In this document: piece after piece, positions 1,941 to 18,253 of the stretch | Position numbering within the stretch: position 1 is the stretch's first letter | Layout of the letters: each line of letters begins with the position of its first letter | Program-made: the position numbers and the translations under genes | Source: a virus | Taxonomy: Duplodnaviria > Heunggongvirae > Uroviricota > Caudoviricetes | Strand: one strand, 5' to 3' | IMG/VR virus record: IMGVR_UViG_2654588181_000006 | Span: 1-19,222 of that record | DNA length: 19,222 nt | Notes under the pieces: model-generated | Told to the model about the DNA's origin: nothing | The model's input: the letters and a program-made list of their open reading frames with translations, nothing else | Database searches by the model: none

Positions 1941-1986
1941 TATAAGTACACTAAGCTTGCGCACAAGGTGTACTTATAAGTACACC
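1941..1986. promoter_or_regulatory. Immunity-switch operator (three copies of an 11-bp half-site, including a 20-bp perfect palindrome)
   Basis: GGTGTACTTATAAGTACACC at 1967-1986 is a perfect 20-bp palindrome. Its half-site TATAAGTACAC recurs as a direct copy at 1941-1951. It lies in the 96-bp divergent intergenic region between the C-like repressor (start 1928) and the cox-like gene (start 2025). Confidence 0.6.
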
Positions 1987-2024
1987 AAGTCACAAACAAC
2001 CACAGATAGCGCAGGTTATCACAC

Positions 2025-2303
2025 ATGGCAAAAGTCCTGAACACACACGAACAGGCAGACTTTGAGCGTTTAGCAGCGTTCTATCCCTACCGCGATGAGC
2101 ATGGGTTACCAGTACTTGAAGAAAGCCTGAAAGATTACGCAAAGCGTACCAACCAAGCTGTTAACACAGTGAAAAGACAGGCTGACAGAGGTTCAATTCC
2201 CATCAACCAAGATGAAAAGAACTCAAGACGCACAGTAAATCTCTTCGCTCTTTTCCTGAAAACAATCAGGAGCGCAGAAAAATACGTGCAGATGACAAAA
2301 TAA
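2025..2303 (+). CDS. cox: Cox-like excisionase / transcriptional regulator
   Basis: 92-aa ORF, ATG at 2025, divergent from the repressor. The segment DYAKRTNQAVNTVKRQADRGSIPIN matches the pattern I recall for the P2 Cox DNA-binding region (EFAKLIGKSTGAVRRMIDKGKLPVI). Similarity is from memory, not a search. Confidence 0.7.
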   Translation: MAKVLNTHEQADFERLAAFYPYRDEHGLPVLEESLKDYAKRTNQAVNTVKRQADRGSIPINQDEKNSRRTVNLFALFLKTIRSAEKYVQMTK

Positions 2304-2317
2304 CGAGGTGTCATTTT

Positions 2318-2656
2318 ATGCTGAAGCAACGCCGTAATTTTCGTACCGGAACAGAACGCCACGCTAACCGTTTCACTACCAGTGCATCACGCAGCAACAT
2401 CCGCTACAGCCTGAGTGATACACACGCAACGCCGGATGGCTACCCAGTAAAACAAATCGGCGAGCACACCTGGCTGATTGAGAAAGCTGGAATCGTGATC
2501 CACAAATGCCCACGCAATCCGTTTACCGGAAACCGCATTTTTGCATTGAGCTGTGGCGACAATCAGTTCGGGCAGGATTTCACATTATACGAAGCACTTC
2601 GCACGGTTGATCGTCTGCTTCGCGGGCAAAGTTTTATTAAACAGGCTGATTTATAA
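2318..2656 (+). CDS. Hypothetical early protein (112 aa)
   Basis: ORF with ATG at 2318 preceded by GAGGTG (2305-2310); co-directional with cox in the early operon. No family recognised. Confidence 0.55.
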   Translation: MLKQRRNFRTGTERHANRFTTSASRSNIRYSLSDTHATPDGYPVKQIGEHTWLIEKAGIVIHKCPRNPFTGNRIFALSCGDNQFGQDFTLYEALRTVDRLLRGQSFIKQADL

Positions 2657-4844: not shown

Positions 4845-5025
4845 AAACAACCTCCATTGTTAATAAACGCCGCTATCCTTCGGCGCATTCCATTTTTGCG
4901 CCGCGATTATACATACTTCAGCACGCAACACAAAAACCGCTTGCCAGCGCTCGTTGAGTCGGGTTACATTTCCGCTGCACCTCATAAAACGGGTGCCGGG
5001 ATTCTCAACCCGCTGACTACACACG

Positions 5026-5057
5026 CGCACAACCGCGCCAGCGGTTTTTTTGTGCGT
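5026..5057 (+). terminator. Terminator-like hairpin with U-tract
   Basis: ACCGC(5032-5036)-gcca-GCGGT(5041-5045) followed by seven T (5045-5051); flanking CGCACA (5026-5031) and TGTGCG (5052-5057) are also complementary. Short stem, so tentative. Confidence 0.3.
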
Positions 5058-5092
5058 ACTGTATTGCCACGTCTTATTCGCGTCAGAATTAT

Positions 5093-5168
5093 GGCGGGGC
5101 GTACGGGGCCGACTTCGGTCGGGCCGGGATCGTGTGTAGCCGGTGTTGAGAACCCCGTACGTCTCGCC
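5093..5168 (+). repeat. Inverted-repeat structured element with an inner C(UUCG)G hairpin
   Basis: GGCGGGGCGTACGGGG (5093-5108) pairs with CCCCGTACGTCTCGCC (5153-5168) at 14 of 16 positions, with a perfect 9-bp core. Inner hairpin CCGAC-TTCG-GTCGG at 5109-5122. The 10-mer GATTCTCAAC occurs at 5000-5009 and 5176-5185, and inverted (9 of 10) at 5145-5154. Confidence 0.35.
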
Positions 5169-5230
5169 ACCCCGAGATTCTCAACTCTGGATGGTGAGTT
5201 TTCAAAACTTACTATACACGAGGCCACGTC

Positions 5231-5461
5231 ATGGCAAACCGCAAGCAACAGCGCGCCCGCGCTGAGCGTATTCACATCCGCAGCGAAATCAACCGCAGAC
5301 TTTTTCGCGCAACACGCGTCGCGCAAATCATGCACATCAATATGTTGCATGAGCGCAGCCACGCACTATCAAACATTTATTCCGCCTCTGTTTTCAGCTA
5401 TCTGGCGGATGATCTGCACGAGCTTCAACAGCTCATCCAGCAGCAAAACAAACTCCATTAA
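5231..5461 (+). CDS. Hypothetical small basic protein (76 aa)
   Basis: ATG 5231 preceded by GAGG (5220-5223). N-terminus MANRKQQRARAERIHIRSEINRR is strongly basic. Lies immediately downstream of the structured region. Confidence 0.45.
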   Translation: MANRKQQRARAERIHIRSEINRRLFRATRVAQIMHINMLHERSHALSNIYSASVFSYLADDLHELQQLIQQQNKLH

Positions 5462-5533
5462 TTCCTGTTCCGGGCCTTTCCTGCACCTTGCGGCGGGAGG
5501 CCTTCGCACATCTGTAACAAGAGGATTGCCGCA

Positions 5534-5899
5534 ATGATTCTCGCCAACGACTTTCTTGAATACCTGCTCAACACAGAGCGTGATCTTGCCGCTCGCGTGC
5601 GTGATCGTTATGACATGTACCTGAAATCCCTGCCTGTACTGCAGCTCGCTGACGGAAAGATTGTTATTGATGGTCGCTACATGATTGACAGCCACGAGGG
5701 AAATTACAGGCTTTACCGCATTGAAGGTGGCACCCCGTCCGTTATTGGCATTTACCAGCGCCCATCCTCTGCAATCGTCGATGTGATTGCCGACAGCATC
5801 CGCATCACACATCGCCATGCCGACACAGAAGACACCGTGCTGGAAATTCAGCGGCTGGCTACAGTCTGCCGCGACACCCTGAATGGCATGACGAAGTAA
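5534..5899 (+). CDS. Hypothetical protein (121 aa) immediately upstream of gene A
   Basis: ATG 5534 preceded by AGAGGA; stop 7 nt before the gpA start. Confidence 0.6.
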   Translation: MILANDFLEYLLNTERDLAARVRDRYDMYLKSLPVLQLADGKIVIDGRYMIDSHEGNYRLYRIEGGTPSVIGIYQRPSSAIVDVIADSIRITHRHADTEDTVLEIQRLATVCRDTLNGMTK

Positions 5900-5905
5900 A
5901 TCACT

Positions 5906-8728
5906 ATGACGGCAGAGTACATCAGGGACTGGCAACAACCGCGCCACGCAGTGGGGCGTGAAGGAACGGGGATCCCCGCTCCTGAATCCGCGCTTTCCTC
6001 CTGGCTGGATGCCTACCGGGCTGAGAACGAGCGCCGCCAGGAAATGGCTGATGCGGCGTTCTCCGCCACACCGCTGGGCAACCTGATTAATAAAAGCCTG
6101 GACGCACAGGAAAAACAGGACAAAACCATCACACTGGCAGGAGACGCCAGAAAACAGGCACGCGGCGCGGTGGATGAAGCCATGGCCTCGCTGCGCCTGC
6201 TGCCGTCCTATCTGCGCGATCCGCTTATTCGCCACCTCTCCTTCCTGCGCAAAAAACAGGAAGCCGATCGCCGGAAAGGCAAAAAGAGCTGGCAGGCGGA
6301 ACGCTATGCACGCGGAACCCTGCGCAAAATATTCGAACGTCTGGATAGCACTGACGGACGCTGGCTGACACCGGGTTATCGCTCCCTTGCCGGACGCGAA
6401 CGCCTGGACGATTTGCTTTACCTGCCGCAGCTCAACAAACACCAGATACAGACGCTGGCCACCATGACGGCGGCGATGTTCAGCAGCACCTTCGAAAAAC
6501 TCTGCGATGGCTTTGGCGCGACCGATGGCGAGCTGACCATGGATGTAACCCTGAAGGCGTATCAGATGCTGGCCCGCATGGCGTTACACCTGCACGCCAT
6601 GCCTCCACATTATGACGCACTGACGACAGACAAAGACCGGAGGAACGAACCGGACACGGAGCTGCTGCCGGGCGCAATCCTTCGCCTGACCTGTGCGGAA
6701 TGGTGGAAACGCAAACTGTGGCTGTTACGTTGCGAGTGGAGAGAAGAACAACTCCGCGCCGCCTGTCTGGTTTCCAGAAAAACATCACCCTATCTGAGCC
6801 AGGACGCGTTAAGCGAGTTTCGCGCACAGCGCGAGAAAACACGCGATTTCCTGAAAAGTTTCATGCTGGAAAATGAAGACGGGTTCACGATTGATCTCGA
6901 GACAGTGTATTACGCGGGAGTAAGTAACCCGGTTCACCGTAAGGCAGAAATGATGGCCACCATGAAGGGGCTGGAACTTCTGGCCGAAGCCCGTGGCGAC
7001 AAAGCGGTGTTTCTGACTGTCACCTGCCCGTCAAAATACCACGCCACAACAGAGAACGGTCATCCGAATCCCAAATGGAACGGGGCCACCATGCGCGACT
7101 CCAGCGATTACCTGGTTAACACGTTTTTTGCAGCGGTCCGCAAGAAACTGAACCGCAACGGCCTGCGCTGGTATGGCATCCGCACGGTGGAGCCTCACCA
7201 TGACGGCACCGTGCACTGGCATATGATGGTCTTTGCTCATCCGGAAGAAATCGACACCATTGTGTCCCACACCCGCGATATTGCCATTCAGGAAGATCGT
7301 CACGAGCTGGGTGATGATATTACCCCACGCTTTAAGGCAGAGTACGTCGACGGTTCGAAAGGTACGCCGACCAGCTACATCGCCACCTACATCGGAAAGA
7401 ACCTGGACAGCCGCGCCGTGGGTGGCATTGACCCGAAAACAAGCAAGCCACGCGTTGATCACGAAACCGGAAAATCAATGGCCGAGAGCGTGGAACGCGC
7501 CATCGGCTGGGCGCGCCTTCACCGCGTCCGCCAGTTCCAGTTCTTTGGTATCCCCTCCCGTCAGGTATGGCGTGAACTCCGCCGCCTTGCCAGTCAGATG
7601 GCCCGCAACCCGGAAGGTCCACAACGTCTGGAAAATGACGCAATGGATGCGGTACTCGCTGCCGCTGATGCCGGGTGTTTTGCCACCTACATTGAGAAAC
7701 AGGGTGGCGTACTTGTTCCACGCAAGGATTACCTGATTCGCACCGCCTACGACCTCGCAGAAGAGCTGAACGATTACGGCGAGCAAAGCGTACAGATTTA
7801 CGGGATCTGGTCGCCACAAATCGGGGAATCTTCCCGCGTGTGCACGCACCCGGATAACTGGAAGCTGGTAAGACGTAAACCGGAAGCGGAAGACAGCGCC
7901 CGCGAAAATGGTTTTGACCTTCAGGGCGGCCCTGCCGCCCCTTGGACTCGTGGCAATAACTGTCCCCGTGTACAGGAAACGGACAACAACGGGACAGAAC
8001 AGCCGGAAGAACGGCCAGCACCGTGGCCGCAGCTCCCTGACGGCGTTGAAGTGAACGAATGGATGCGCTCACTGAAACGGCACGAACGCCGGGCGCTGAC
8101 GCGTTCGCTTCGTGACAAACAGGCAAAAAACAGCAGTGATGAAATGCAGAGCTGGACACAGAGCCGCAAACAGCAGCGGCCTTTGCCTGATAACCACGAA
8201 TTACTCGCTAAAGAATGGCGGGAGTCTGCTGAATCTCTCGGCCTGCATATCGGTGAACAACAGATGCAGCACCTGTTACGGGGCGGCAGTCTGTGCGTTG
8301 ACGGCAGCATCATTGCACCGCAGGGATTTGAAATTGTACGCAAACCGGATACCCGCCCGGACAGCCGAATCACGCAGCTCTGGCAGCGCCTGAGCCGTAA
8401 TCATGGCATAAGCAGCACGGAGATCCGCCATAACCCGGTCGCCAGCTATCTGGCACAGCTGGGGGCATCAGACCCTGAAGCCGCCGCACGCCTGGCATCC
8501 ACACTTCAGCAGGACCAGAACACCATGAAAACACCCGTTACCGTGCTTTCTGACATGCTGCGCGCCATCCGCGACGCAGAGCACGCACAGAGAATCAGTG
8601 AAACCACTGAACGCGCCAGCCGCAAAGCAGACCTGCTGCGGGGTAGCCTGACCAGTGGAAACAAAAAACAGACAGAAACGGGACTCACGAATCCCGTAAA
8701 TGAGCAAAAAACGCGCAGCGATATATGA
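5906..8728 (+). CDS. A: Rolling-circle replication initiation endonuclease (P2 gpA family)
   Basis: 940-aa ORF. HUH motif VHWHMMV at 7211-7231 and paired tyrosines in SYIATYIGKN (Y-x3-Y, 7376-7399) match the HUH relaxase/Rep catalytic arrangement of P2 A. Position after the cox-proximal early genes fits P2 synteny. Longer than the roughly 760 aa I recall for P2 A. Confidence 0.9.
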   Translation: MTAEYIRDWQQPRHAVGREGTGIPAPESALSSWLDAYRAENERRQEMADAAFSATPLGNLINKSLDAQEKQDKTITLAGDARKQARGAVDEAMASLRLLPSYLRDPLIRHLSFLRKKQEADRRKGKKSWQAERYARGTLRKIFERLDSTDGRWLTPGYRSLAGRERLDDLLYLPQLNKHQIQTLATMTAAMFSSTFEKLCDGFGATDGELTMDVTLKAYQMLARMALHLHAMPPHYDALTTDKDRRNEPDTELLPGAILRLTCAEWWKRKLWLLRCEWREEQLRAACLVSRKTSPYLSQDALSEFRAQREKTRDFLKSFMLENEDGFTIDLETVYYAGVSNPVHRKAEMMATMKGLELLAEARGDKAVFLTVTCPSKYHATTENGHPNPKWNGATMRDSSDYLVNTFFAAVRKKLNRNGLRWYGIRTVEPHHDGTVHWHMMVFAHPEEIDTIVSHTRDIAIQEDRHELGDDITPRFKAEYVDGSKGTPTSYIATYIGKNLDSRAVGGIDPKTSKPRVDHETGKSMAESVERAIGWARLHRVRQFQFFGIPSRQVWRELRRLASQMARNPEGPQRLENDAMDAVLAAADAGCFATYIEKQGGVLVPRKDYLIRTAYDLAEELNDYGEQSVQIYGIWSPQIGESSRVCTHPDNWKLVRRKPEAEDSARENGFDLQGGPAAPWTRGNNCPRVQETDNNGTEQPEERPAPWPQLPDGVEVNEWMRSLKRHERRALTRSLRDKQAKNSSDEMQSWTQSRKQQRPLPDNHELLAKEWRESAESLGLHIGEQQMQHLLRGGSLCVDGSIIAPQGFEIVRKPDTRPDSRITQLWQRLSRNHGISSTEIRHNPVASYLAQLGASDPEAAARLASTLQQDQNTMKTPVTVLSDMLRAIRDAEHAQRISETTERASRKADLLRGSLTSGNKKQTETGLTNPVNEQKTRSDI

Positions 8729-8773
8729 AGCGCGCACAAAACAGGCAAAAACGGGATTTCAGAATCCCGTAAA
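8665..8773 (+). repeat. Two 36-bp direct repeats, each with an internal hairpin
   Basis: aaaacagacagaaacgggactcacgaatcccgtaaa (8665-8700) versus aaaacaggcaaaaacgggatttcagaatcccgtaaa (8738-8773), 30 of 36 identical. Each contains the inverted repeat ACGGGA...TCCCGT; most mismatches fall in the loop. The first copy overlaps the 3' end of gene A, the second lies in the intergenic region upstream of the ParM-like gene. Confidence 0.5.
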
Positions 8774-8804
8774 CGATTAATTAATCAACATAAGGAAAAG
8801 CGAC

Positions 8805-9737
8805 ATGAAAATTTGTATCGACGACGGCTCCACCAACATCAAGCTGGCATGGACTGAGAACGGCGAACGCCGCAACGCCATCAGCCCGAACAGCTTCAAG
8901 TCGGAATGGTCTGCGCCGTTCGGCGGCACGCAGCCCGCGAACTACATGCTTGATGGCGTGCGCTATGGTTTTGATCCGGTCAGCGATCGCTTTGTCCAGA
9001 CGACCGACACGCAATACCAGTACAGCGATGTGAATGTCATTGCCATTCATCACGCGCTGGTCAAATCAGGCATCACGCCACAGGAGGTGGATGTGGTTGT
9101 CACCCTGCCACTGAGCGAGTATTTCGACACAAACGCACAGCCGGACATGGCCAACATCAACCGCAAAAAAGCGAACGTTATGCGCCCGGTGGAGTACCAG
9201 AACGGCGAAGCATTCACTATCCGTAACGTGCGGGTTATGCCTGAATCCATTCCGGCTGGCTTTAAGGCACTGGCTGACATGAGTCCGTTTGAATCCCTGC
9301 TGATTGTGGATTTGGGCGGAACCACGCTGGATGTGGCAAAGGTTCAGGGGCAACTGGCAGGTATCAGCCAGGTGTTTTGCGATCCACACGTAGGCGTTTC
9401 TCTGATGGCCGATGCCGTACTGTCGGTGATGGCCACTAACGGTATGCGCACCAGTCACCACATCGCCAATACCATTATCGAACATCGCCATGATGAAGCC
9501 TGGCTGCGCCAGCACATCCACAATGACGCGCATTACGCCAGCCTGATGGCGGTTATTCGTGAAAAGGAAGAAACACTGAAACAACGCGTGATCCGCGCGC
9601 TGGCGGGTTTTTCGGGTTACGGGAAGTTACAGGAACTGATGCCACTGGCGATCGTATGGCCTCCGCCACCGGGCGGGAGCTGGCCGCAACAACAGGGACC
9701 AGCGCCGGAGGCAGCGGAGCCGGGACCACGGGTGTGA
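8805..9737 (+). CDS. ParM/StbA-like actin-family ATPase, 3' end apparently truncated or replaced
   Basis: N-terminus MKICIDDGSTNIKLAW closely matches the ParM start (MLVFIDDGSTNIKLQW, from memory), with further blocks SPNSFK, QYSDVNV..HHAL, PESIPAGF, DLGGTT, IIEHRHD and LAGFSGYGK. After about residue 270 (near nt 9626) the reading frame turns proline-rich (LAIVWPPPPGGSWPQQQGPAPEAAEPGPRV) and overlaps the convergent tape-measure ORF, so the actin-fold C-terminus is probably missing. Confidence 0.65.
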   Translation: MKICIDDGSTNIKLAWTENGERRNAISPNSFKSEWSAPFGGTQPANYMLDGVRYGFDPVSDRFVQTTDTQYQYSDVNVIAIHHALVKSGITPQEVDVVVTLPLSEYFDTNAQPDMANINRKKANVMRPVEYQNGEAFTIRNVRVMPESIPAGFKALADMSPFESLLIVDLGGTTLDVAKVQGQLAGISQVFCDPHVGVSLMADAVLSVMATNGMRTSHHIANTIIEHRHDEAWLRQHIHNDAHYASLMAVIREKEETLKQRVIRALAGFSGYGKLQELMPLAIVWPPPPGGSWPQQQGPAPEAAEPGPRV

Positions 9738-12267
9738 TATTAATTGCGGGGGCAGGCTTACTGACCTGTGCAATCTTTCGCTCCTGCCACTCCCCACGAA
9801 CAGCAAGTGCGCGGGGCAGGTTCTTAAAGACAATATCGCCGGGGCCAATACGTTTTTTTGTCTCATCAACCAGCTTACCTGTGTTATCAGCAATTTTGCT
9901 GAGTCTGCGTAGCGTCCCGGTATTGCTGTCTGTGAGTGGTTTGTTGTCTTTGGGTTTATCACCCCCGGTGCCATTGCCATTTTCCACAGGCTTCGGCGGA
10001 TTGATTTTCGCCAGGTCCCCCTGAAGCAAGGCAACCTTGTCCTGAAGAATGGCCGCACGCTGTGCGTCTTCGATTTTCTTGCGCGCCCTTTCCGCTTCAT
10101 CCGGAAGGACGCCAAGTTTTTCAAGTATCCACGCCAGCGTATCCAGTAGCATTTTTGCAGGTGTCAGAACAAGCTGTAACGCACCGCCAAGAACGTTACC
10201 GAATATCTCGCCAGCACTGGTACATTTATCCAGCGTTTCCTTGCTGGACTCCATCGGTGACAGCAGCGATTTAAACCAGTTAAACACCTGACTGATCCCG
10301 CTTCCGATTGCGTCAAAAACAGGGCCAAACCGTTCAAAGGTTTCGCGCAACGGAGCCAGCCGTTCCATAATCCCGCTGAACACCCCGGCATAAAACGCCT
10401 TAATGGGTTCCCAGTATTTCCAGATGAGAACCGCCGCAGCCACAAACGCAGCAGCAATCAATCCGACCGGACTGAACAGCGCCCCGATAGCACCCCCCAG
10501 CAAAGAAACGGAACCCGTCACCATTCCCCATAGTGCTGGCAGGACCCTGACAGCATTCATTGATCCGGTCAGGAGAGAAAAACCAAGACGCAGTTTTGCC
10601 AGCGGGCCAGCAAGCACACCAATAGCCAGCGACAACGAGCCAACCGTTGCAGTCATTGCCAGCAACGCACCGCCTGCTATCAGTAGCTGGCGCGTCAGTA
10701 CCGGATGGGCCTGCGCCAGCGAGGTGATTTTTTCAAGCACCCGCGTGAGCCACTGCGTGACAGAACGCAGCGGACCGTCAACCAGATCACTGATGCGAAT
10801 ACGAAGACCTTCCCATGCGCTGTCGAGATTTTTCAGGTCCCCATCAAGATTATCGGCCATTACTTTTGCAACGCGATCGGCCTCTCCCCTTGCCCCCTGC
10901 AATTCTCTGGTCAGTTTTTGCAGCTCTCCTGAACCAGCCGCCGCAACAAGCGTCTGCAAACCAACGAACGCCTCTTCTCCGGCGATGTCCTTGAAGAAGG
11001 AAACCTGGTCCACCTGTCCGTATTTTTGTGTCGCCTTATAGAGATCAAGCAGCACATCCTCCATCGGGCGCATTTTGCCTCTGGCGTCAGCAACTGACAC
11101 TCCCAGCTCTTTCAGCGCATCAGCCGCAGCTTTTGGCGGTGATGCAAGGCGGGACAGACTTGCGCGCATGGCCGTACCAGCATCGCTTCCACGAAGGCCA
11201 TTATTGGCAAGCATCCCGGCCATGGCTGCCGCTTCTTCAAGACTGATACCAAGTTTTGCGGCAACCGGACCGGTATACTTCATGGTTTCGCCCAGCGCGC
11301 GTAAATCAGTATTGGTCCGGGTGAATGCCGCTGTCAGCGTATCGCCAACCCGGTCCATTTGATCGGCTGTCAGGTTGAACTGTGTGAGGATATTGGAGCC
11401 TATATCAGCCGTCTCGCCGAGTTCGACGCCACCTGCCAGCGCCATATTAAGAACACCGGGCAATGCGGCCTGAATGGCCTGCGGAGTAAAACCAGCCATT
11501 GCAAGAAATGCCTGTCCACTGGCGGCATCGCCTGCGGTGAACTGCGTTTCAGAGCCAAGTTTTAACGCCTGCTCACGCAGCGCCTTAAACTGCGGGCTGT
11601 TCTGGTCGATTCGCGTCAGTGCCTGAACGCGGGACATCTCTTTGCCGAACCCGATCGCAGGCTGCAAAAAACGCCCGGCAGCATAGCCGCCCGCCGCTGC
11701 CGCACCAATTGCCAGCGCACCACCTGTTTTCAGTTTTCCCGCTGTTTCCTGCGCGCGCGAATACCGCTCACGCGCCCGCGTTACACGCGCAAGCGCCTGC
11801 CGTTCGCGTTCAAGCTGGTTGTTGTACTGTTCGGTGCGTCTGATGGCCTGCTGGATGGTGTTATCGCTGCCTGTCAGGGAAATGCCGTGGCGTTTCAGCT
11901 CTCCGCCAAGTTCCCGCATTTTCTGAATTTCCCGTGTGCGCGATTCATTCAGGCGTTCAAGCCGGGTGCTTAACTGCTGCATCAGCTTTTGTTGTTTTTC
12001 GCTGAGCACTGTACCCGTGCGTTGTAACTGATTAAGGGCATTAAGCTGGCGTCGTGCTTTCAATATGCCAGCATCCGCTTTACTGACAGCGTCACGGGCG
12101 CGCTCAAATGAACGCGCCTGACGCTCGAGATTTTTGATCGCCCCCTGCGTTCGCTGGATGGAGTCACCAAACTGCCCCATCAGGCGGCAGGCGTTTTCGG
12201 CAGGCCGGGTCAGCCTGTCAACGGCGCTGAAAGCGACCCGGATATCAAGAGTCTTCATTATCTGCAT
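9553..12267 (-). CDS. T: Tail tape measure protein (P2 gpT-like)
   Basis: 904-aa ORF: N-terminal coiled-coil region, Gly/Ala-rich hydrophobic central segments, and position directly downstream of the E/E' chaperone pair with a 23-nt overlap. The last 70 or so residues are P/A/V-rich and read antisense into the ParM-like gene, so the native 3' end is uncertain. Confidence 0.85.
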   Translation of the reverse strand: MQIMKTLDIRVAFSAVDRLTRPAENACRLMGQFGDSIQRTQGAIKNLERQARSFERARDAVSKADAGILKARRQLNALNQLQRTGTVLSEKQQKLMQQLSTRLERLNESRTREIQKMRELGGELKRHGISLTGSDNTIQQAIRRTEQYNNQLERERQALARVTRARERYSRAQETAGKLKTGGALAIGAAAAGGYAAGRFLQPAIGFGKEMSRVQALTRIDQNSPQFKALREQALKLGSETQFTAGDAASGQAFLAMAGFTPQAIQAALPGVLNMALAGGVELGETADIGSNILTQFNLTADQMDRVGDTLTAAFTRTNTDLRALGETMKYTGPVAAKLGISLEEAAAMAGMLANNGLRGSDAGTAMRASLSRLASPPKAAADALKELGVSVADARGKMRPMEDVLLDLYKATQKYGQVDQVSFFKDIAGEEAFVGLQTLVAAAGSGELQKLTRELQGARGEADRVAKVMADNLDGDLKNLDSAWEGLRIRISDLVDGPLRSVTQWLTRVLEKITSLAQAHPVLTRQLLIAGGALLAMTATVGSLSLAIGVLAGPLAKLRLGFSLLTGSMNAVRVLPALWGMVTGSVSLLGGAIGALFSPVGLIAAAFVAAAVLIWKYWEPIKAFYAGVFSGIMERLAPLRETFERFGPVFDAIGSGISQVFNWFKSLLSPMESSKETLDKCTSAGEIFGNVLGGALQLVLTPAKMLLDTLAWILEKLGVLPDEAERARKKIEDAQRAAILQDKVALLQGDLAKINPPKPVENGNGTGGDKPKDNKPLTDSNTGTLRRLSKIADNTGKLVDETKKRIGPGDIVFKNLPRALAVRGEWQERKIAQVSKPAPAINITPVVPAPLPPALVPVVAASSRPVAEAIRSPVASVPVTSRNPKNPPARGSRVVSVFLPFHE

Positions 12268-12783
12268 TCCCGCTGCGAAGTGCCGCCCGCTCGCGCCAGC
12301 TAACCACTTCGCCGGGCGTCATCATGAAGATTTCGGCGGGCGACCAGTTAAAAATGGCGGCAATATCCGCCACCAGATCTTCGATGTGCTCAAAGCACAC
12401 CAGGGTGATTACGCTGCCGTCTCCTGCACGCTCTTCGCGCCAGAGTCTGGCTCGCTCATAAAATTTACAGCCACAGCGCACAACTGAATAAAATCGCGTG
12501 ACGACATTTTTTTAATCATCACTTCATCCAGTCGTGGCGAGGTCACGCGAGGCAACAGCGTAAACATGGTATCCGCTTTCAGATTCAGCACATCAGACAG
12601 CGACAGACCACGCAGGGATCCAGCCTGCTCAATAGCCCCGGTGATCTCCACATACGTGATTTTTTCGCCACCACGCTCAATTGGTCGGGTCAGTTTTACG
12701 CCACGTTCGACAGCCATATCCTCGCCTGCCGTCACATCATCCGCCACGGTGTTATTCCGGGTTTCAGTATCGATGTCTTTCAT
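12245..12783 (-). CDS. Tail assembly chaperone E+E' (programmed -1 frameshift product)
   Basis: An ORF in the -1 frame (12245..12481) overlaps the 3' part of E. That frame opens just after a run of seven A on the minus strand (plus 12507-12513), a plausible slippery site inside E codons ATT-AAA-AAA-ATG. The arrangement mirrors lambda G/GT and P2 E/E'. Confidence 0.6.
12409..12783 (-). CDS. E: Tail assembly chaperone gpE-like
   Basis: 124-aa ORF; ATG 12783..12781 preceded by AAGGAG with a 7-nt spacer. Located between FII and T and carries the overlapping E' frame. Confidence 0.7.
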   Translation of the reverse strand: MKDIDTETRNNTVADDVTAGEDMAVERGVKLTRPIERGGEKITYVEITGAIEQAGSLRGLSLSDVLNLKADTMFTLLPRVTSPRLDEVMIKKMSSRDFIQLCAVAVNFMSEPDSGAKSVQETAA

Positions 12784-12838
12784 CAGTTGTCTCCTTTTCA
12801 GTCAGAGGCGACGCACTGCGCCGCCTGCATATTACTTA

Positions 12839-13351
12839 TCAGCCAAGCCCAAGCGCGGAACGGATACGGTCAGGCACAATGTCCTTGCCGTCCTTCCGGT
12901 AGATGTGGTTCAACAGGTCGATTTCCCACAGCGGGCGATCGTTAACGCTCAGCTTGTAGTAGGTGTTTTTGACAGCGTAAGTGTGTGATGTGGCTTCGCC
13001 CTGTTTGGCTTCCCCCATATCAATTTCCGTCACACGCCCGCGCATCTCGATTTCATACAGATCACTTTCTGCATCGGTGTAGTATTCACCCGCAAAACGC
13101 AGCAACGTGCCGTCAATCGTGCCGCCATATTTAAGGAACAGCTCACGAACTGCGCCCCCCATGACAAAACTCGCATCAAGCGCAGAATCATCAAGACCGA
13201 GGTCGATACTCACCGCCCCCATCATGCCACCGCCACGATAGCTTTCAGTTTTGCGCGTCAGTTTAGGTGGAGTGACGGACGTCACCTTACCCACTTCGTT
13301 TTCACCATTCACAAACAGCGTAAAAAAGCGAAGATGTTTTGGTACAGCCAT
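12839..13351 (-). CDS. FII: Tail tube protein (P2 gpFII-like)
   Basis: 170-aa ORF. Segments TPPKLTRKTESYRGGGMMGAV and YYKLSVNDRPLWEIDLLN match the FII pattern I recall. Start overlaps the FI stop (TGATG). Confidence 0.85.
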   Translation of the reverse strand: MAVPKHLRFFTLFVNGENEVGKVTSVTPPKLTRKTESYRGGGMMGAVSIDLGLDDSALDASFVMGGAVRELFLKYGGTIDGTLLRFAGEYYTDAESDLYEIEMRGRVTEIDMGEAKQGEATSHTYAVKNTYYKLSVNDRPLWEIDLLNHIYRKDGKDIVPDRIRSALGLG

Positions 13352-14535
13352 CAGACACCTCCCAACACCGCAAATGCGGGATCAAAGTATTCATCAGTAA
13401 ACGTCTGGTAAAGCTCCATATCTTCCAGCGGAGGAACGGGCGTATATTTGTAGCGAATACGCACACGCCCCTGACGTAAATCCGTGGTGCTGTTATCCAC
13501 CACGTCATACCAGCACGACGCGCCAATCAGTTTCCCGGCAGTAACCAGTGAATCCAGTTTTGCCCTGATGGCACTGATAACATCCTTCACGTTCGCAGGC
13601 GTCAGTGGACTGTCGATGGTTTCAAACTGCGCTTCCGCAATTGAATCAGCCAGCACCTGTGCGGTTCGGGTATACACCTCAAAGATGTAGGCGTTCGTTT
13701 CCGGTGTGCGGTTGCCCCAGAAGCGGAACCCGTTGCGACGAATAATGGTCGTGATTTCTTTGTTGTTGAGGCTGTTGGCATCGCTGTCTTCGGCCTGCAA
13801 CGACCAGAACACATGCCTCGACATCCCCAGCACATTTTTAACCGGAACGTTGGACAGTGATTTATGCCAGCCCTGCTCATGGTCAATGTACGCACGAAGG
13901 CCGCACGCATAGGCAGGCGCGGGGAACGTTTCGTTTTTGCCACTTTTCGGGTTGTAGGCGATGAAGTCCGGCCATAAGAGCATCACCTCACGTTCGTTGA
14001 ATTTCTGGCGGTAGGTAATCGCCTCAGCCATCGTGTTACAGCCGTAACATGAGGCATACACAAACGCGCGCAGTTTACCTGCGATCACGCACAGGGATTT
14101 TGTTACAGCCTCCGTGTCCAGCTCCGGCGCGGCCAGAATACGCGGACGGTATCCGATGCTTTCATCCTGCTCTGCAACAAGCAGCGCAAACATCCCCGTA
14201 TAGCTGCCGTCATCCTCAGAACCACCGATAACCAGTTGATCCTGCGTCTTTCCGTCTTCTTCTTTGTGTTCAGCCACGCGAACGACGATCACCTTTGTGC
14301 TCACCTGGTCTGCAATGGCCTTAAGCGCACGATAAAGCGTCCCCGTTGTCCCGCATTTTCCCAGCACGTCATTGACGCGGGTCAGCAGTGTGGGCTTGTT
14401 CAGCGGGAACAGCTTCGCGTCCGCATCATCCGCCGTTGCCACGATACCGATAACGCTGGAATCAACATCGTTAATCGCTGTTACCAGGTCGGTATTTTCC
14501 GTAACACGGGCACCATGAAAACGAGTTTCACTCAT
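13351..14535 (-). CDS. FI: Contractile tail sheath protein (P2 gpFI-like)
   Basis: 394-aa ORF with conserved sheath blocks FPLNKP, KLRAFVYASCYGC, YRQKFNEREVMLLWPDF, IDHEQGWHKSLSNV, IRRNGFRFWGNRT, YTRTAQVLADSIAEA and YKYTPVPPLE. Confidence 0.9.
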   Translation of the reverse strand: MSETRFHGARVTENTDLVTAINDVDSSVIGIVATADDADAKLFPLNKPTLLTRVNDVLGKCGTTGTLYRALKAIADQVSTKVIVVRVAEHKEEDGKTQDQLVIGGSEDDGSYTGMFALLVAEQDESIGYRPRILAAPELDTEAVTKSLCVIAGKLRAFVYASCYGCNTMAEAITYRQKFNEREVMLLWPDFIAYNPKSGKNETFPAPAYACGLRAYIDHEQGWHKSLSNVPVKNVLGMSRHVFWSLQAEDSDANSLNNKEITTIIRRNGFRFWGNRTPETNAYIFEVYTRTAQVLADSIAEAQFETIDSPLTPANVKDVISAIRAKLDSLVTAGKLIGASCWYDVVDNSTTDLRQGRVRIRYKYTPVPPLEDMELYQTFTDEYFDPAFAVLGGV

Positions 14536-14692
14536 AGCTTCAGCCCCTTGTATCCGTTAAATGATTCGGCAACAATCATCACCCACCACGCGCGTAATCT
14601 CACCCCTGCGCCGTTCTCCCGACCCGGCGACAACAAAAAGCAGTAACCCCCTCCGCACGCACATGCGACCATGTCGCACAGGGAGGGAACAG

Positions 14693-15802
14693 ATGACCGA
14701 CACCACCATGCAATTGCTCAGTCAGGGCACAGACCCCGTGAAAATGCCGGATTTTGATATTCTCGCGGAGGGTAAAACGCTGTCAGGCGTGGCAGAGCGC
14801 CTGATGAGCCTGTCACTGACCGACAACCGGGGATTTGAGGCGGACCAGCTCGCCGTCACGCTGGATGATGCGGATGGTCAGTTGCAGCTACCGCCACGGG
14901 GCGCGCGCCTGACGGTTCTCATTGGCTGGAAAGGAGAACCGCTGACAGAAAAAGGCACTTACATTGTTGATGAAATCGCTCACGAAGGACCGCCGGACAG
15001 GCTGACTGTTTCAGCCAGAAGCGCAGATTTTCGGGATGAATTTAACGTTAAACGTGAGGTGTCCTGGCATGATGTGACCGTTGAACGCGTGGTATCCGCC
15101 ATCGCTCATCGGTACGGCCTGAAACCGCAAATCAGCGAAATGCTGATGGATATCGAAATCGACCACGCCGACCAGACTGAAGAAAGCGACATGTCCTTCC
15201 TTACGCGCATGGCGGAAATGCTGGGCGCAATCACCACGGTAAAAAGCGGTAATCTGTTATTCATCATGCCCGGTGGTGGCGTGAACGCACAGGGTCAGCC
15301 GTTGCCATCGTTTGCCATCACACGCAGCAGCGGCGATCGCCATCAGTTCCGCATTGCTGACCGCGAGGCGTATACGGGTGTACGCGCCTACTGGCTTGAT
15401 CTTAATTACGGGAAAAAGAAAAAAGTCAGCGTGAAACGCCGCAAACCGCCAAAACCCAAAAAGGAGAAAAGTAGCAGCCGTGAAGGTGATTATATGGAAG
15501 GCGCGGAAGGCAATGTGTTTGTGTTACGCAAGACTTATCAAAACGAGCAGGCAGCAAGACGCGCAGCGGCGGCAAAGTGGCAGCAGCTACAACGCGGAGC
15601 CGCAGCGTTCTCCATCACACTGGCACGTGGACGCGCAGAACTCTACCCCGAAATGCATGGCACGGTAACAGGATTTAAAAGCGAGATTGATAATCAGGAC
15701 TGGATTATTGCGAAAGCCGAGCACACCATTGATAACAGCGGCTTTACCACGCAGCTTGAGCTTGAAGCAAAAATCCCGGAGTGGATAGCAGAAACAGAGT
15801 AA
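14693..15802 (+). CDS. D: Tail protein D (phage late control gene D family)
   Basis: ORF 14561..15802; start chosen at ATG 14693 preceded by GGGAGGGA (14681-14688). Blocks LTDNRGFEADQL, GWKGEPL, ARSADFR, SWHD, DQTEESDMSFL, YTGVRAYW, LARGRAELYPE and GFTTQLELE fit the gpD family. It is on the opposite strand from FI-FII-E-T, unlike canonical P2. Confidence 0.8.
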   Translation: MTDTTMQLLSQGTDPVKMPDFDILAEGKTLSGVAERLMSLSLTDNRGFEADQLAVTLDDADGQLQLPPRGARLTVLIGWKGEPLTEKGTYIVDEIAHEGPPDRLTVSARSADFRDEFNVKREVSWHDVTVERVVSAIAHRYGLKPQISEMLMDIEIDHADQTEESDMSFLTRMAEMLGAITTVKSGNLLFIMPGGGVNAQGQPLPSFAITRSSGDRHQFRIADREAYTGVRAYWLDLNYGKKKKVSVKRRKPPKPKKEKSSSREGDYMEGAEGNVFVLRKTYQNEQAARRAAAAKWQQLQRGAAAFSITLARGRAELYPEMHGTVTGFKSEIDNQDWIIAKAEHTIDNSGFTTQLELEAKIPEWIAETE

Positions 15803-15890
15803 ACAACTTAAATGTATAAGCTAAGATATTAGCTGGAACGCTTGCTGCACAGAGGCAGCCCCAATTTGACAATCACTTCTATGACAGAAG

Positions 15891-15913
15891 CGCTACCTTA
15901 TTATAAGGTAGCG
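15891..15913. repeat. 23-bp perfect palindrome
   Basis: CGCTACCTTAT-T-ATAAGGTAGCG is perfectly self-complementary around a central T. It sits 89 bp downstream of the D stop, at the edge of the AT-rich island. Confidence 0.5.
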
Positions 15914-16054
15914 TAGATTGAGCAATCTATATCGTGCTAAAAACACATGTTGAATATTTAGATATCGATGTGATATTAACGTTATATCAAGAGAGTTAAT
16001 GTTCTACCGAACCTTATTATCAGAGTTTATTATAGATAAACAATTACTATCAAT

Positions 16055-16113
16055 AAGAGCCACGCACGCAATATTTTGAGGCTGTGGCTCTTATCTGTGA
16101 ACCTACGAGGTTC
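16055..16113 (-). terminator. Tandem stem-loops immediately downstream of the ATPase gene
   Basis: GAACC-tacga-GGTTC at 16099-16113 starts 2 nt after the ATPase stop; AAGAGCCAC (16055-16063) pairs with GTGGCTCTT (16084-16092). No clean U-tract, so terminator function is tentative. Confidence 0.35.
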
Positions 16114-16114
16114 G

Positions 16115-18253
16115 TCAGGCAATCTCGCGACCAACATCGTCATTTGCCGCAAAAGCTGATAGTAACAAATTATCACACTCAGTTATGACATATTCTGGAA
16201 TGAGATCGAATCTAGCCGGATCCAGCTGGCAGATAAACTCATTTTCGATATGATAGGTTTCATTAATAAATTTCTGAATTACAGAGTTTGTATGCTCAAT
16301 ACCCATTAACCTGAAAACTTGCAATTTTTCGTAGCTACTTTTGCAACTGAAATAAAGCGTGGTGAGAAAGTTTTCGCAGGTGATTTTTGCTAGCTCTACC
16401 TTATAGTTGAAATCTGGAATATGATTAATTATTTCGTGACAACCTAAATTTTCACTAACTTCTGACATTAACGAATATTCCCCGTCGATCTTCGCCAAGC
16501 GCCTATCCTCCAGAAATTCCCGCTTATGAAAAAGATTTGAAAGCACTTGATAGGCATCCCCCAGATCATCAAGGATTTCGTAATGACGGCGAAGATATAT
16601 CAACTTAATAATATCGTCACTCACAGACTGTAGAGCCGATGTGCAGATTTGAGCAAAAGTTTTGATATCCGAATTTGAAATTGGTTGCTCTGTAATAACA
16701 CCATTACTGTAGCGGAGATAAGCTGCTGAAACTTGATTATCAAATTGCTGCCTAACAGCGCGAATAGTATCGATGATTGGCTCAACATCATGCGTCAACA
16801 TCAGCACTGTTTTACTCTTAAGACAATCAGATGGCTCTCTACGAAAAAGCATTTCAAGAATCGCAAACTTCTTATTTTTATCGAACGAGGAAATGGGATC
16901 ATCCAAAATAATCAGACTTGGTTTTCTAGAAAGACATTCATACATGAAGAGCACGAGGGCAAACGCATTTCTTTCACCGTAACTTAGATGTTGGCTACCA
17001 CCAGTGACGACATCTGTATGATCTACATGATAGAGTTGTAGTCGTGGCTGTGCATCGTCTGTTATCCGCACACGGTAACGATAACCAGCATAGGATAGAA
17101 AATCATTGATATTTTTTTGGTGCTTTATAACGAGCTGGCGTACTTTATTCCGCTGCTGATTCAGTTTACCCTGAAGTGGTCCAGCGCTTGCAATTAGATC
17201 AGTCAGAGAAGTATTGAGTGCATCAACAATACGTGTGGTTTCTTCTGATTGAAGTTCAGTAAAGAAGTCCAGATTCAACTTGTAAGAGGCGAGTTTAGCA
17301 GCTACATCGTCTCCTTCTGTGAAGCTAAATCCGGAAAGCGTTTTAAGCACGGTAAGTTTATCTATTAGATCATCTGTTTGAGATTTAAGGGTGATAAGAT
17401 ATGTTTCATGCTGCTGCTCAAGACCATTAGGAAGGGTTGTGATTTCTTTAAGACGATCACGGGCAGAGTCAGTAAGGTAAATTCCTAAACGCTGAATGAC
17501 ATCAACAAGCTCCATCAAATTTTTGATGACAGCTTGGTCATATTCTACTCCAACCTGTTGAATTCGTTGTTGTTGTTGTTCGGTAGATTCACTACTGCAA
17601 TAAGGACAGTACTCACCCGCAAGTTCACCAAACTCTGTTAGCCCTTTTGTCTGCCAAGCAATCCACTGCACACTTTTATTACTAGTTATCATGTTTCTGT
17701 ACGGTTCAAGTGCGGCAGGGATATGAAGAAGTTTATTACCTCCAGCAAGCGCTTTCATACCCTTTGTACTTTTACTAAGAGCAGATGCTGCAGTGACTTT
17801 AAATGCACTGGATAAAACAGTGAGATCGCTCAATAGGGTTTCCAGTTGTGTATGCTCGGTAAACACCTGACGGATCGTCGAAATAATTAATTCTATTTCA
17901 CTCTCTGTTCTGATATACGCGTCAGTTTTGATTAATATATCGAAACTGTTGGCTACAAGCTCATCCTGACGGAATGTGAACTGGCTAACATACTCCTCAT
18001 TGAAACACATTATATTATCTAGTTGTTCCATTCCGGTCACAGAGGGCGCAACATTATCGGGGTTATTTGCCCTGAATTTAAAAGGAAGTAATTCTGCCAA
18101 ACAAGCTTCCTGCCCAGGCAAACTGAACTGCATCGCCCGAGCAATAGTGCTTTTCCCTGTACCATTCGGCGCAAAACGAATATTCAACTTTTTTTCGGCT
18201 AGAGAAACAGTAGCAAAGTCAATGCTATTACAGTAACTAATTTCAATTTCCAT
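16115..18253 (-). CDS. ABC/Rad50-type ATPase with CxxC zinc hook and C-terminal putative nuclease domain (RloC/PrrC-like architecture); candidate anti-phage defence protein
   Basis: 712-aa ORF; ATG 18253..18251 preceded by AAGAAGG with a 7-nt spacer. Walker A APNGTGKST (18146-18172); about 380 aa of predicted coiled coil containing EYCPYCSS (CxxC, 17597-17608); signature-like LSYGERN (16967-16987); Walker B LIILDD (16898-16915); H-loop LTHD; then a roughly 225-aa C-terminal domain with a candidate Rx5H motif RLMGIEH (16292-16312). The gene is visibly AT-rich and opposite in orientation to the flanking D and ogr. Confidence 0.8.
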   Translation of the reverse strand: MEIEISYCNSIDFATVSLAEKKLNIRFAPNGTGKSTIARAMQFSLPGQEACLAELLPFKFRANNPDNVAPSVTGMEQLDNIMCFNEEYVSQFTFRQDELVANSFDILIKTDAYIRTESEIELIISTIRQVFTEHTQLETLLSDLTVLSSAFKVTAASALSKSTKGMKALAGGNKLLHIPAALEPYRNMITSNKSVQWIAWQTKGLTEFGELAGEYCPYCSSESTEQQQQRIQQVGVEYDQAVIKNLMELVDVIQRLGIYLTDSARDRLKEITTLPNGLEQQHETYLITLKSQTDDLIDKLTVLKTLSGFSFTEGDDVAAKLASYKLNLDFFTELQSEETTRIVDALNTSLTDLIASAGPLQGKLNQQRNKVRQLVIKHQKNINDFLSYAGYRYRVRITDDAQPRLQLYHVDHTDVVTGGSQHLSYGERNAFALVLFMYECLSRKPSLIILDDPISSFDKNKKFAILEMLFRREPSDCLKSKTVLMLTHDVEPIIDTIRAVRQQFDNQVSAAYLRYSNGVITEQPISNSDIKTFAQICTSALQSVSDDIIKLIYLRRHYEILDDLGDAYQVLSNLFHKREFLEDRRLAKIDGEYSLMSEVSENLGCHEIINHIPDFNYKVELAKITCENFLTTLYFSCKSSYEKLQVFRLMGIEHTNSVIQKFINETYHIENEFICQLDPARFDLIPEYVITECDNLLLSAFAANDDVGREIA

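Follow-up and report, generated by a model that had tools for sequence, protein, structure and literature searches.

The stretch of viral DNA analysed here (the window, 19,222 nt) evidently carries a defective prophage of the P88 type (Xuanwuvirus, P2 family), which in our reading keeps the left part of its own type II DNA-partition cassette and was left with a dead copy by one deletion of about 18.6 kb. We give this reading a probability of about 80%: sequence comparison establishes the family of the protein, its truncation, the deletion, the cassette boundary and the conservation of the sites, and the part that we infer is the working of the intact cassette, namely ParR binding to the dyads, co-transcription with gene A and the biological role. 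The window itself matters little, as a broken copy of a common, annotated cassette whose state is explained by one large deletion in a decaying prophage. The wider question is why an integrating P2-family phage, seen in roughly one in four E. coli genomes and also in several further genera, retains a plasmid partition motor. What is gained here is the cassette boundary at ~8617 and a two-site centromere candidate that is unlike R1 parC in architecture, together with a set of natural controls, namely prophages with the same gpA and other cargo, and prophages in which parM is knocked out.

Table 1. Features of the window around the partition remnant
Feature	Position	Strand	Details and basis
Gene A (gpA), rolling-circle replication endonuclease, 940 aa	5906..8728	+	Pfam Phage_GPA, E 2e-131
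Cis region specific to the cassette, 5' of parM; candidate for a reduced parC	8617..8804		Divergence in other-cargo prophages
Repeat 1 (42 nt)	8662..8703		Holds dyad 8679-8696 CGGGACTCACGAATCCCG; 126 nt 5' of parM ATG; inside gpA ORF
Repeat 2 (42 nt)	8735..8776		Holds dyad 8752-8769 CGGGATTTCAGAATCCCG; 53 nt 5' of parM ATG
ORF (truncated parM and fusion tail), 310 aa	8805..9737	+	Starts MKICIDDGSTNIKLAW
parM, codons 1-273 of 319	8805..9623	+	Pfam; P88 ParM identity over 273 aa
Fusion tail, 37 unrelated codons and stop	9624..9737	+	Antisense strand of tape-measure gene; P88 alignment
Deletion junction, 9-bp microhomology GGTTACGGG	9615..9623		P88 9674 joined to 28265; blastn and three-way alignment
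Tape-measure gene, 3'-truncated	9553..12267	-	Pfam PhageMin_Tail, E 3.6e-56; P88 C-terminus comparison

Truncated parM and the deletion

First of all, the ORF at 8805 belongs to the ParM family. Both Pfam domains that make up the curated-threshold signature of a ParM/StbA actin-like ATPase are present: StbA_N matches over 1-157 of 158 (E 1.7e-82, 275.5 bits against a curated cut-off of 24.6 bits), and the ParM C-terminal domain scores 163.6 bits (cut-off 27.4 bits), its match covering profile positions 1-116 of 159 and stopping at residue 274; NCBIfam gave no ParM or ParR match above its cut-off. Residues 1-273 are identical to P88 ParM in the alignment, in agreement with a preliminary description that had followed ParM-like blocks to about residue 270, and the last 37 residues bear no relation to it. 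The phosphate-1 (DDGST, residues 6-10) and phosphate-2 (DLGGTT, 169-174) motifs are kept; the adenosine motif GGGA and the C-terminal segment are gone, leaving neither the full motif set nor a full-length fold, and the invariant ParM columns G279-A282, P305, Q306 and G312 all lie beyond the break at codon 273. Intact P88 ParM, on the other hand, has 319 residues and all motifs, and matches the R1 ParM structure 1mwk over residues 2-316 (E 9e-93). A full-length protein of some non-ParM family, which the preliminary description had named as a refuting case, is thus not what the ORF encodes: the protein is truncated, and is a ParM both by Pfam and by the 1mwk match of its P88 homologue.

Second, the truncation coincides with a single deletion. 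Five collinear blocks of 83-97% identity join the window and P88 across the early and late regions (blastn); window 4928-9623 corresponds to P88 4979-9674 and window 9615-15810 to P88 28265-34441, leaving P88 coordinates 9675-28264 missing. The junction lies in a 9-bp microhomology, across which a single deletion took place. Lost with it are parR and the genes for portal, terminase, capsid, lysis, baseplate, fibres, invertase and gpU; the portal gene has no match anywhere in the window, and the prophage does not hold a complete set of virion and lysis genes. Codon 273 of parM is joined to the antisense 3' end of the tape-measure gene, whose last ~55 native codons are in turn swapped for ~20 codons read antisense through parM; the 37-codon tail of the 310-aa ORF is, to judge by these alignments, a fusion artefact. 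Elsewhere, the window also has an integrase region other than that of P88, and an additional PDC-S06 gene near ogr.

The preliminary description had correctly recognized a disrupted 3' end, which proves to be homology stopping at 273 of 319 codons, and the lack of a ParR partner (no ParR-like sequence in the whole window, tblastn E > 0.3), so that no adaptor gene lies directly downstream of parM as in ParMRC systems. It had taken the loss of the C-terminus as decay; the missing ParR and the missing ParM C-terminus are instead both due to the one deletion, and the 273 retained codons differ from P88 by 8 synonymous and no amino-acid changes. Because the GGGA motif and parR were cut away, the window cassette appears to be dead, an ordinary non-functional remnant that forms the front half of a DNA-segregation cassette of the plasmid type (two repeats and ParM). 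It is highly improbable that the 310-aa fusion still works, say by blocking the ParM filaments of related plasmids or phages in a dominant-negative manner, and was retained for that reason. The unchanged 273 residues, the open ORF and the intact cis sites would suit such a role, but the lack of amino-acid changes also fits recency, given only 8 synonymous differences, and the fusion is without the invariant GGGA motif and C-terminal segment. Furthermore, the only records of this exact fusion protein come from GCA_900103855.1 (labelled Shigella sonnei) and one sequencing run, and none of 5,426 complete E. coli genomes has the parM/tape-measure junction; this rarity, two assemblies in all, points to a recent accident rather than a selected form.

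Cassette boundary and paired dyads

The gpA of the window is 97.7% identical to that of P88, and its homology to the gpA of prophages with other cargo ends at ~8616. The last ~37 gpA codons, from ~8617, thus belong to the par cassette and not to the conserved gpA body: two prophages with the same gpA and an AAA-ATPase plus S8-peptidase cargo (L141 and L142) diverge at ~8616 and are without the dyad motif, while positions 8600-9623 match Xuanwuvirus cassettes (P88, Citrobacter phage phiSM, 520873 and others) at 97-99% nucleotide identity. Positions 8617-9623 can accordingly be read as the left part of the lineage's own type II partition cassette, in the order parC-like repeats, parM, parR. Repeat 1, as a correction, sits within the gpA ORF rather than between the genes. 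parM starts 76 bp after gene A on the same strand, and neither a σ70-like promoter nor a + strand terminator was found in 8617-8804.

As previously described, two 36-nt direct repeats (8665-8700 and 8738-8773) share 30 of 36 positions; they extend to 42 nt (81% identical, spacing 73), and each contains the ACGGGA-N8-TCCCGT inverted repeat, which occurs in the window only at 8678-8697 and 8751-8770 (0.01 expected by chance). The palindrome arms measure 8 nt (ACGGGAyT / AATCCCGT) around a 4-nt centre. Since this centre holds three of the six differences between the repeats, while one affects an arm and the other two the A-rich leader, the earlier statement that substitutions are concentrated in the loop is half right. 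A search allowing at most one mismatch gives four matches against 0.96 expected, and the sole dyad copy that is not upstream of parM is an exact match, put down to chance, within the tape-measure gene of P88. The dyad core GGG-N11-CCC recurs twice per locus, 72-73 bp apart and at a fixed distance to parM, in phages of Escherichia, Plesiomonas and Hafnia, at -126/-53 from the parM ATG in Escherichia and Salmonella, -132/-60 in Plesiomonas and -129/-56 in Hafnia. A fuller motif, YGGGWY-N5-WAHCCCR, defined post hoc on those very six sites, is found at just two places in each locus and has no match in 382 kb of loci that are not gpA-linked. The Serratia lineage has no dyad, and carries other palindromes at similar positions. 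The half-site AA(A/T)CCC resembles the R1-type iteron AAACCCA, and the 200 bp upstream of P88 parM contain no hexamer occurring more than three times.

Most likely, then, the two dyads are a reduced parC, that is, candidate ParR-binding sites; the earlier suggestion of a centromere-like or operator site remains the best candidate. No promoter was found between or after the sites, unlike in R1 parC, which leaves the autoregulatory side of the parC analogy unsupported. ParRs of the ribbon-helix-helix type are known for binding direct repeats, and R1 parC has 10 iterons where the phage has only two dyads; another binding protein can therefore be envisaged, be it Cox, C, Ogr, gpA or a host factor, or the dyads could be relics of cargo-swapping recombination after gene A. 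Such origins would agree with 20-bp palindromes having a free 4-bp centre, which are typical for helix-turn-helix dimers, and with the position of the dyads only 45 nt from the cassette boundary, ParR binding being itself putative. We nevertheless regard them as unlikely: apart from the chance copy in P88, the dyads co-occur only with parMR, their distance is fixed to the parM ATG and not to the gpA stop in three genera, and other-cargo prophages with the same gpA and early region have none. The P2-type origin, moreover, lies ~700 bp off, where the best match to the P2 ori 30-mer (window 7930, 22 of 30) falls in a 44-bp block (7928-7971) that is ~91% conserved across many P2-like phages. A replication origin or single-strand initiation signal was rejected for the repeats themselves, as the nick site is in that block and the repeats go with the par cassette rather than with gpA.

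The same palindromes could act as RNA hairpins, either as the terminator of gene A or as two tandem minus-strand terminators that shield gene A from antisense transcription, a reading that we consider very unlikely. Both hairpins have good predicted folds (-9 to -10.7 kcal/mol, z -2.4 to -3.6), and when the minus strand is read the two 8-bp stems each run into a T-rich tail and are classed as terminator-like; the terminator scan, however, returned 3 sites against 1.6 expected in shuffles, which is within chance. A gene A terminator is rejected: no T run follows either hairpin on the + strand, hairpin 1 precedes the gpA stop codon, and the dyads recur in three genera, whereas the refuting case put forward earlier was an ordinary, non-conserved terminator. 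The minus-strand version was favoured by the T-rich tails and by G·U-compatible variants at site 1, but the variants at site 2 fit the opposite strand; among 86 close copies, the single transitions allow wobble pairing on one strand at one site and on the other strand at the other site, with 0 compensatory doubles. Pair counting likewise gives no covariation (81% paired against 78.9% in shuffles, 140/500); the close IMG/VR relatives are 99-100% identical and thus unfit for covariation analysis, and their use was confined to allele variation and dN/dS. The sites of Plesiomonas and Hafnia can pair at GGG/CCC only and have no T tail, and in intact P88 the nearest minus-strand gene reading toward the region is the portal gene, 2.5 kb away; for these reasons minus-strand terminators were rejected as well. 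The repeats thus lack the hairpin with U tract and conserved structure of an intrinsic terminator, and a known RNA family is discarded, as Rfam has no match for the hairpins.

Intact relatives and the proposed role

In P88, parM (8856-9815) is followed after 4 bp by a gene for a 103-aa PF10784 (Plasmid_stab_B) protein (9820-10131; YP_009113061), which provides the intact copy with a downstream ParR-like gene that the preliminary description had proposed to look for. The N-terminus (RRISFYL) and C-terminus (NxxALFP) of this protein align with R1 ParR, by which the gene can be taken to encode an R1-type ParR; a PDB sequence search found no ParR relative. In intact relatives generally, the PF10784 gene starts at most ~5 bp from the parM stop or overlaps it, and since a cognate ParR lies 4 bp downstream, the idea of a repurposed actin-like protein becomes unnecessary. 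The order gpA-parM-parR ... portal is also found in Plesiomonas, Hafnia and Serratia prophages. The gpA-linked ParMs of the four genera form one clade in a neighbour-joining tree and are 58-63% identical to P88 ParM, whereas identity is 55% or less for the remaining full-length homologues sampled, none of them gpA-linked and many carrying a plasmid label. Of the earlier proposal of a module captured from a plasmid or phage-plasmid, the type II remnant thus stands, with no sign of recent plasmid capture. The nearest other phage ParM, and the only other phage match, is that of the P1-like phage D6 (47.8% identity).

The preliminary description had also called a ParM in an integrated P2-like prophage unusual, which is overturned: the gpA-repeats-parM junction is present in 1,289 of 5,426 complete E. 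coli genomes (~24%), is routinely annotated, and a putative partition system has been reported in about a quarter of P2-like phages (Rousset et al. 2022). The cassette is therefore a common P88-like cargo that NCBI annotation already labels; in our literature search, no functional work on a ParM of P88, Peduoviridae or Xuanwuvirus came up. With a median dN/dS of 0.047 over 68 intact alleles, parM is under strong purifying selection (dN/dS ~0.05), and it has been inactivated repeatedly among natural prophages. A defence system was rejected: P88 ParM, ParR and the two ORFs downstream of parR have no PADLOC match.

In the intact cassette, parM and parR would probably be co-transcribed with gene A. 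ParR, a predicted ribbon-helix-helix adaptor with a C-terminal ParM-binding tail, would bind the two dyads, whose 73-bp spacing is ~7 helical turns, and ParM-ATP filaments captured by ParR would then push sister circular phage genomes apart. Segregation would presumably act while the phage is episomal, whether after infection, after induction or in a plasmid-like state. We tentatively suggest, at somewhat less than even odds, that P88-type phages (of at least Escherichia/Salmonella/Citrobacter, Plesiomonas and Hafnia) have retained a streamlined ParMRC, in which the centromere would consist of two dyad ParR sites, partly inside gene A and with no promoter of its own, and a motor expressed with the replication genes would act on monomeric circles in the episomal phase, like AlpAC in CGP3, rather than maintain a plasmid. 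If so, the window keeps an intact minimal centromere beside a dead motor.

Low-copy plasmid persistence of P88-like phages, a phage-plasmid lifestyle instead of genome positioning during infection or induction, is a possible but rather doubtful role. Plasmid-like persistence was suggested by Rousset et al. (2022), one complete 34.5-kb P88-like genome with integrase is filed as a circular plasmid (pZ1323PEC0009-2), and the nearest other phage ParM is the one in D6; the circular contig, however, could equally arise from spontaneous induction. Among the 1,534 places found in complete E. coli genomes, 1,532 are chromosomal and 2 are on plasmids, and the integrase is kept in all elements examined. 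A rolling-circle initiator such as gene A, furthermore, does not readily account for the stable maintenance of a theta-type plasmid. Finally, the position of parM, on the gene A strand and 76 bp behind that gene, with neither a promoter nor a terminator found between, predicts expression with the early lytic operon and hence repression in lysogens.

Comparison with known systems

The closest relative in kind is the type II ParMRC (parA/stb) of R1/R100, with a ParM homologous over its full length to that of P88, a ParR of the same PF10784 family in which the ribbon-helix-helix N-terminus and C-terminal ParM-binding tail align, and the same order of cis site, parM and parR. The two are also alike in the ribosome-binding region (CATAAGGA) and in the CCC half-site (AAxCCC against iteron AAACCCA). 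R1-type parC, as seen in locus L106, arranges its ~11-bp direct iterons in two groups of five that lie 94 bp from each other and flank a TTGACA promoter, a layout that the window does not have; the phage site, on the other hand, has two single 18-20-bp inverted repeats 72-73 bp apart and no detectable promoter, the first within the gpA ORF. The R1/R100 system resides on a plasmid and the phage cassette on an integrating phage, and the window copy is truncated and without ParR. P88 and other Xuanwuvirus cassettes share with the window the repeats and the position after gene A; parM codons 274-319, parR and the 18.6 kb of late genes are found only in the intact copies.

The slot is that of the P2 cargo hotspot (orf91, tin, old) between gene A and the portal gene Q, in which one cassette replaces another from a left boundary that falls within the gene A 3' end. 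In P2, tin and old serve in defence, lie on the opposite strand with their own promoter and are expressed in lysogens, whereas parMR lies on the gene A strand, lacks a PADLOC match and belongs to a DNA-segregation family. Phage-plasmids such as P1 (ParAB-parS) and D6 (StbA-type ParM) also bear a segregation machine, but live as plasmids for which integration is not the norm, while P88-like phages have an integrase and are >99% chromosomal. By analogy, the best functional precedent for the intact P88-type cassette may be AlpC/AlpA/alpS of CGP3 in Corynebacterium glutamicum, likewise an integrated prophage with an actin-like filament former and a DNA-binding adaptor with upstream sites, whose alp genes are reported to be induced early and to be required if the excised, circular phage DNA is to replicate efficiently (PMC4446434). 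AlpC, however, comes from another actin-like family than ParM, and AlpA is an adaptor of another kind; the P88 type is known from sequence, and the window copy is non-functional.

The truncated cassette and its deletion junction

A ParM-like open reading frame (ORF) was proposed in the preliminary description, and profile searches bear this out: Pfam StbA_N is covered as a whole domain (E 1.7e-82), followed by positions 1-116 of the 159 of the ParM C-terminal domain, where the match stops at residue 274. Aligned to the intact reference, Escherichia phage P88, homology ends at residue 273; residues 1-273 are those of P88 ParM and the other 37 are antisense tape-measure sequence, leaving a protein without the GGGA motif and the C-terminal segment. 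The disrupted 3' end and missing ParR partner reported earlier are thus real, neither ParR nor portal sequence being found in the window. Since ParR is gone and ParM lacks these parts, the partition cassette of the window cannot work.

Nucleotide searches match window 8600-9623 to P88 and other Xuanwuvirus (Peduoviridae) genomes at 97-99% identity, and window 9615-9800 to their tape-measure gene. Window 4928-9623 corresponds to P88 4979-9674 and window 9615-15810 to P88 28265-34441, the two blocks overlapping by 9 bp (GGTTACGGG, window 9615-9623) in a microhomology junction. As these blocks adjoin, the comparison indicates a deletion of about 18.6 kb (P88 9675-28264), which holds parM codons 274-319, parR, four small ORFs, portal, terminase, capsid, lysis, baseplate, tail fibres, invertase and gpU; the last ~55 residues of the tape-measure protein are also gone. 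The exact fusion protein is recorded only as SDN88082.1 (GCA_900103855.1, labelled Shigella sonnei) and in one sequencing run, the junction occurs in 0 of 5,426 complete E. coli genomes, and the retained parM differs from P88 by 8 synonymous and no non-synonymous changes; the deletion is therefore rare and recent. The suggested remnant of a partition module stands, while its "decay" is one large deletion.

Elsewhere in the remnant, a 2.8-kb insertion relative to P88 (window 15810-18591) lies between the gpD-like gene and ogr, and the ATPase encoded there probably serves against phages, as cargo that the defective prophage has kept. The integrase/repressor end (window 1-2354) has no nucleotide similarity to P88, and the prophage is flanked in its source contig by a FecCD-family permease/glutathione-peroxidase gene pair and a 99-aa HU/IHF-family gene; its attachment site therefore probably differs from that of P88.

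Features of the window, with dyad positions in related loci
Feature	Position	Strand	Remarks
Integrase ORF	596-1720	-	
Repeat 1	8662-8703		42 nt
Repeat 2	8735-8776		42 nt; direct, 81% identical to repeat 1, spacing 73 (repeat finder)
ParM ORF	8805-9737	+	310 aa; N-terminus MKICIDDGSTNIKLAW
Tape-measure ORF (PhageMin_Tail)	9553-12267	-	904 aa; overlaps 3' end of ParM ORF
AAA_13/ABC-type ATPase	16115-18253	-	712 aa; PADLOC PDC-S06 (candidate defence family), E 2e-277, full length
Ogr/Delta late activator gene	18631-18891		right end of remnant
hok/gef-family toxin gene	19082-19222		right end of remnant; cut by window end
Dyads, Escherichia/Salmonella/E. albertii	-126 / -53 from parM ATG		spacing 73
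Dyads, Plesiomonas	-132 / -60 from parM ATG		spacing 72
Dyads, Hafnia	-129 / -56 from parM ATG		spacing 73

The intact cassette, its boundary and its history

An intact copy with a downstream ParR-like gene is present in P88, where parM (319 aa) is followed after 4 bp by a 103-aa protein of PF10784 (Plasmid_stab_B, the ParR/StbB family of plasmid R1; E 1.6e-24). P88 ParM aligns over residues 2-316 with the R1 ParM crystal-structure sequence (E 9e-93), and the phage and R1 ParRs align in the N-terminal ribbon-helix-helix strand (RRISFYL vs RTIAFKL) and the C-terminal tail (NxxALFP vs NAMKLIN). By sequence, the P88 genes are a complete type II partition gene pair. An Escherichia albertii locus (L086, 4965-5279) is a mosaic within the cassette: its ParM is 100% identical to that of P88 and its ParR only 53-57%, with the N-terminal strand unaltered, differences spread through the remaining protein and the dyad sites conserved.

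Two E. coli prophages (L141 and L142) share the same gpA, the gene A product, and carry an AAA-ATPase and an S8-peptidase as cargo. Their homology to the window is lost at about 8616 (their position 3917), their gpA ends in a different 18-codon tail and the dyad is absent. This settles ownership: both repeats and roughly the last 37 gpA codons are assigned to the par cassette. As the last 18-37 codons vary with the cargo, the gpA C-terminal tail is cassette-supplied, and the swappable cargo slot has its left boundary within the 3' end of gene A.

The presence of the cassette in P2-like phages has been annotated and published before, Rousset et al. noting a putative partition system in about a quarter of these phages; no functional study was found in the literature. 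The description of a ParM in an integrated P2-like prophage as unusual does not hold, the gpA-repeats-parM junction occurring in 1,289 of 5,426 complete E. coli genomes, with a chromosomal location in nearly all cases. The order gpA-parM-parR ... portal recurs in Plesiomonas, Hafnia and Serratia prophages (ParM 58-63% identical), gpA-linked ParMs all fall in one clade separate from loci not linked to gpA (a neighbour-joining tree without support values), and median dN/dS is 0.047 over 68 intact alleles. The cassette is therefore old in the P88-type lineage and under purifying selection; one such clade across several genera speaks against a recent capture from a plasmid. Despite this selection, parM knockouts recur in individual prophages, and the gene is recurrently lost after integration: a split form (188 + 130 aa) sits in an otherwise complete prophage and belongs to a 90%-identity cluster of 555 member sequences, and another deletion fuses parM to tail gene I. 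Both are independent inactivations in E. coli prophages (L144, 6001-6960; L143, 6001-7188).

The upstream repeats as a candidate centromere

We consider that the repeats most likely are a reduced ParR-binding centromere, at a probability of roughly two-thirds. They are 30/36 identical over 8665-8700 and 8738-8773, as first described; each holds a palindrome, and ACGGGA-N8-TCCCGT occurs at those two places only in the window (0.01 expected). Repeat 1 lies within the 940-aa gene A ORF (5906-8728). An 18-bp dyad, YGGGWY-N5-WAHCCCR, occurs exactly twice per gpA-linked par locus in Escherichia/Salmonella/E. albertii, Plesiomonas and Hafnia, with none in the rest of these loci and 0 in 382 kb of loci not linked to gpA; since those sites also served to define the pattern, what is informative is how specific it is and how constant its geometry, not the matching itself. 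The conserved feature is DNA-level architecture; two dyads are tied to the cassette and to the parM start, and the earlier suggestion of centromere-like repeats is probably right. The Serratia lineage differs: its ParR strand reads NRKISFYL, a slight change, and different palindromes occupy comparable positions, a single case compatible with co-variation.

A terminator for gene A, the alternative raised earlier, is rejected: neither hairpin is followed by a T run on the plus strand, and hairpin 1 comes before the gene A stop codon. Both hairpins scored as terminator-like on the minus strand, a reading we reject on three counts. First, in 86 close copies conservation is seen in the arms and free variation in the central 4 nt, with no compensatory double changes; the single transitions are compatible with wobble pairing on the minus strand at site 1 but on the plus strand at site 2. 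Second, across genera GGG/CCC alone stays pairable, and pair counts are no higher than in shuffles (81% vs 78.9%; 140/500). Third, the T tail is absent in Plesiomonas and Hafnia. The hairpins have no Rfam match. Nor are the repeats the origin, since the P2 nick-site sequence has its counterpart at window 7930 (22/30); the 44-bp block 7928-7971 within gene A, whose conservation is about 91% in many P2-like phages, distant ones (Klebsiella, Salmonella SopEPhi, Yersinia) included, is likely the replication origin.

Just upstream of the parM Shine-Dalgarno sequence, the motif ATTAATCAA (window 8777-8788; equivalents in loci L082 and L083) is kept in Escherichia, Plesiomonas and Hafnia cassettes within a spacer that is not alignable; it may be a weak -10 element or another binding site.

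Proposed working and comparison with known systems

In intact elements, parM follows gene A on one strand at a distance of 76 bp, neither a promoter nor a terminator was detected in the interval, and parM would probably be expressed together with the early replication genes. Dimers of ParR would bind the two dyads on the same helix face (73 bp is about 7 turns), and ParM-ATP filaments, held by ParR tails, would drive sister phage circles away from each other. The products of P2-type replication are monomeric circles, suitable as substrates. That the cassette instead serves plasmid-like carriage of the phage strikes us as rather unlikely: one P88-like genome of 34.5 kb has been deposited as a circular plasmid, but the cassette is overwhelmingly chromosomal in complete E. 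coli genomes, and an integrase is present in the complete elements examined. The genome so deposited (L140; NZ_CP148288.1, pZ1323PEC0009-2), a complete, non-mobilizable "plasmid" with integrase, parM and parR from an E. coli of a cat, reflects episomal carriage or else a phage that had excised and was replicating when caught by assembly.

Only the left boundary of the par cassette and the candidate two-dyad centromere are new here; interest is low for the window itself and moderate for the role of ParMRC in integrating phages. Segregation of phage circles has a precedent in AlpAC of prophage CGP3, an actin-like protein and adaptor which are reported to be induced early and without which the excised phage does not replicate efficiently (PMC4446434). 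In other ParM loci not linked to gpA, locus-specific hexamers occur in 3-5 copies or more, unlike in the phage region. The R1-type iteron AAACCCA can be likened to the phage half-site AA(A/T)CCC, and R1 and phage parM have the ribosome-binding region CATAAGGA in common. In R1-type parC, however, a TTGACA promoter is flanked by 2 x 5 direct iterons set 94 bp apart, whereas the phage upstream region, in which no promoter-like site was detected, has two inverted-repeat sites.
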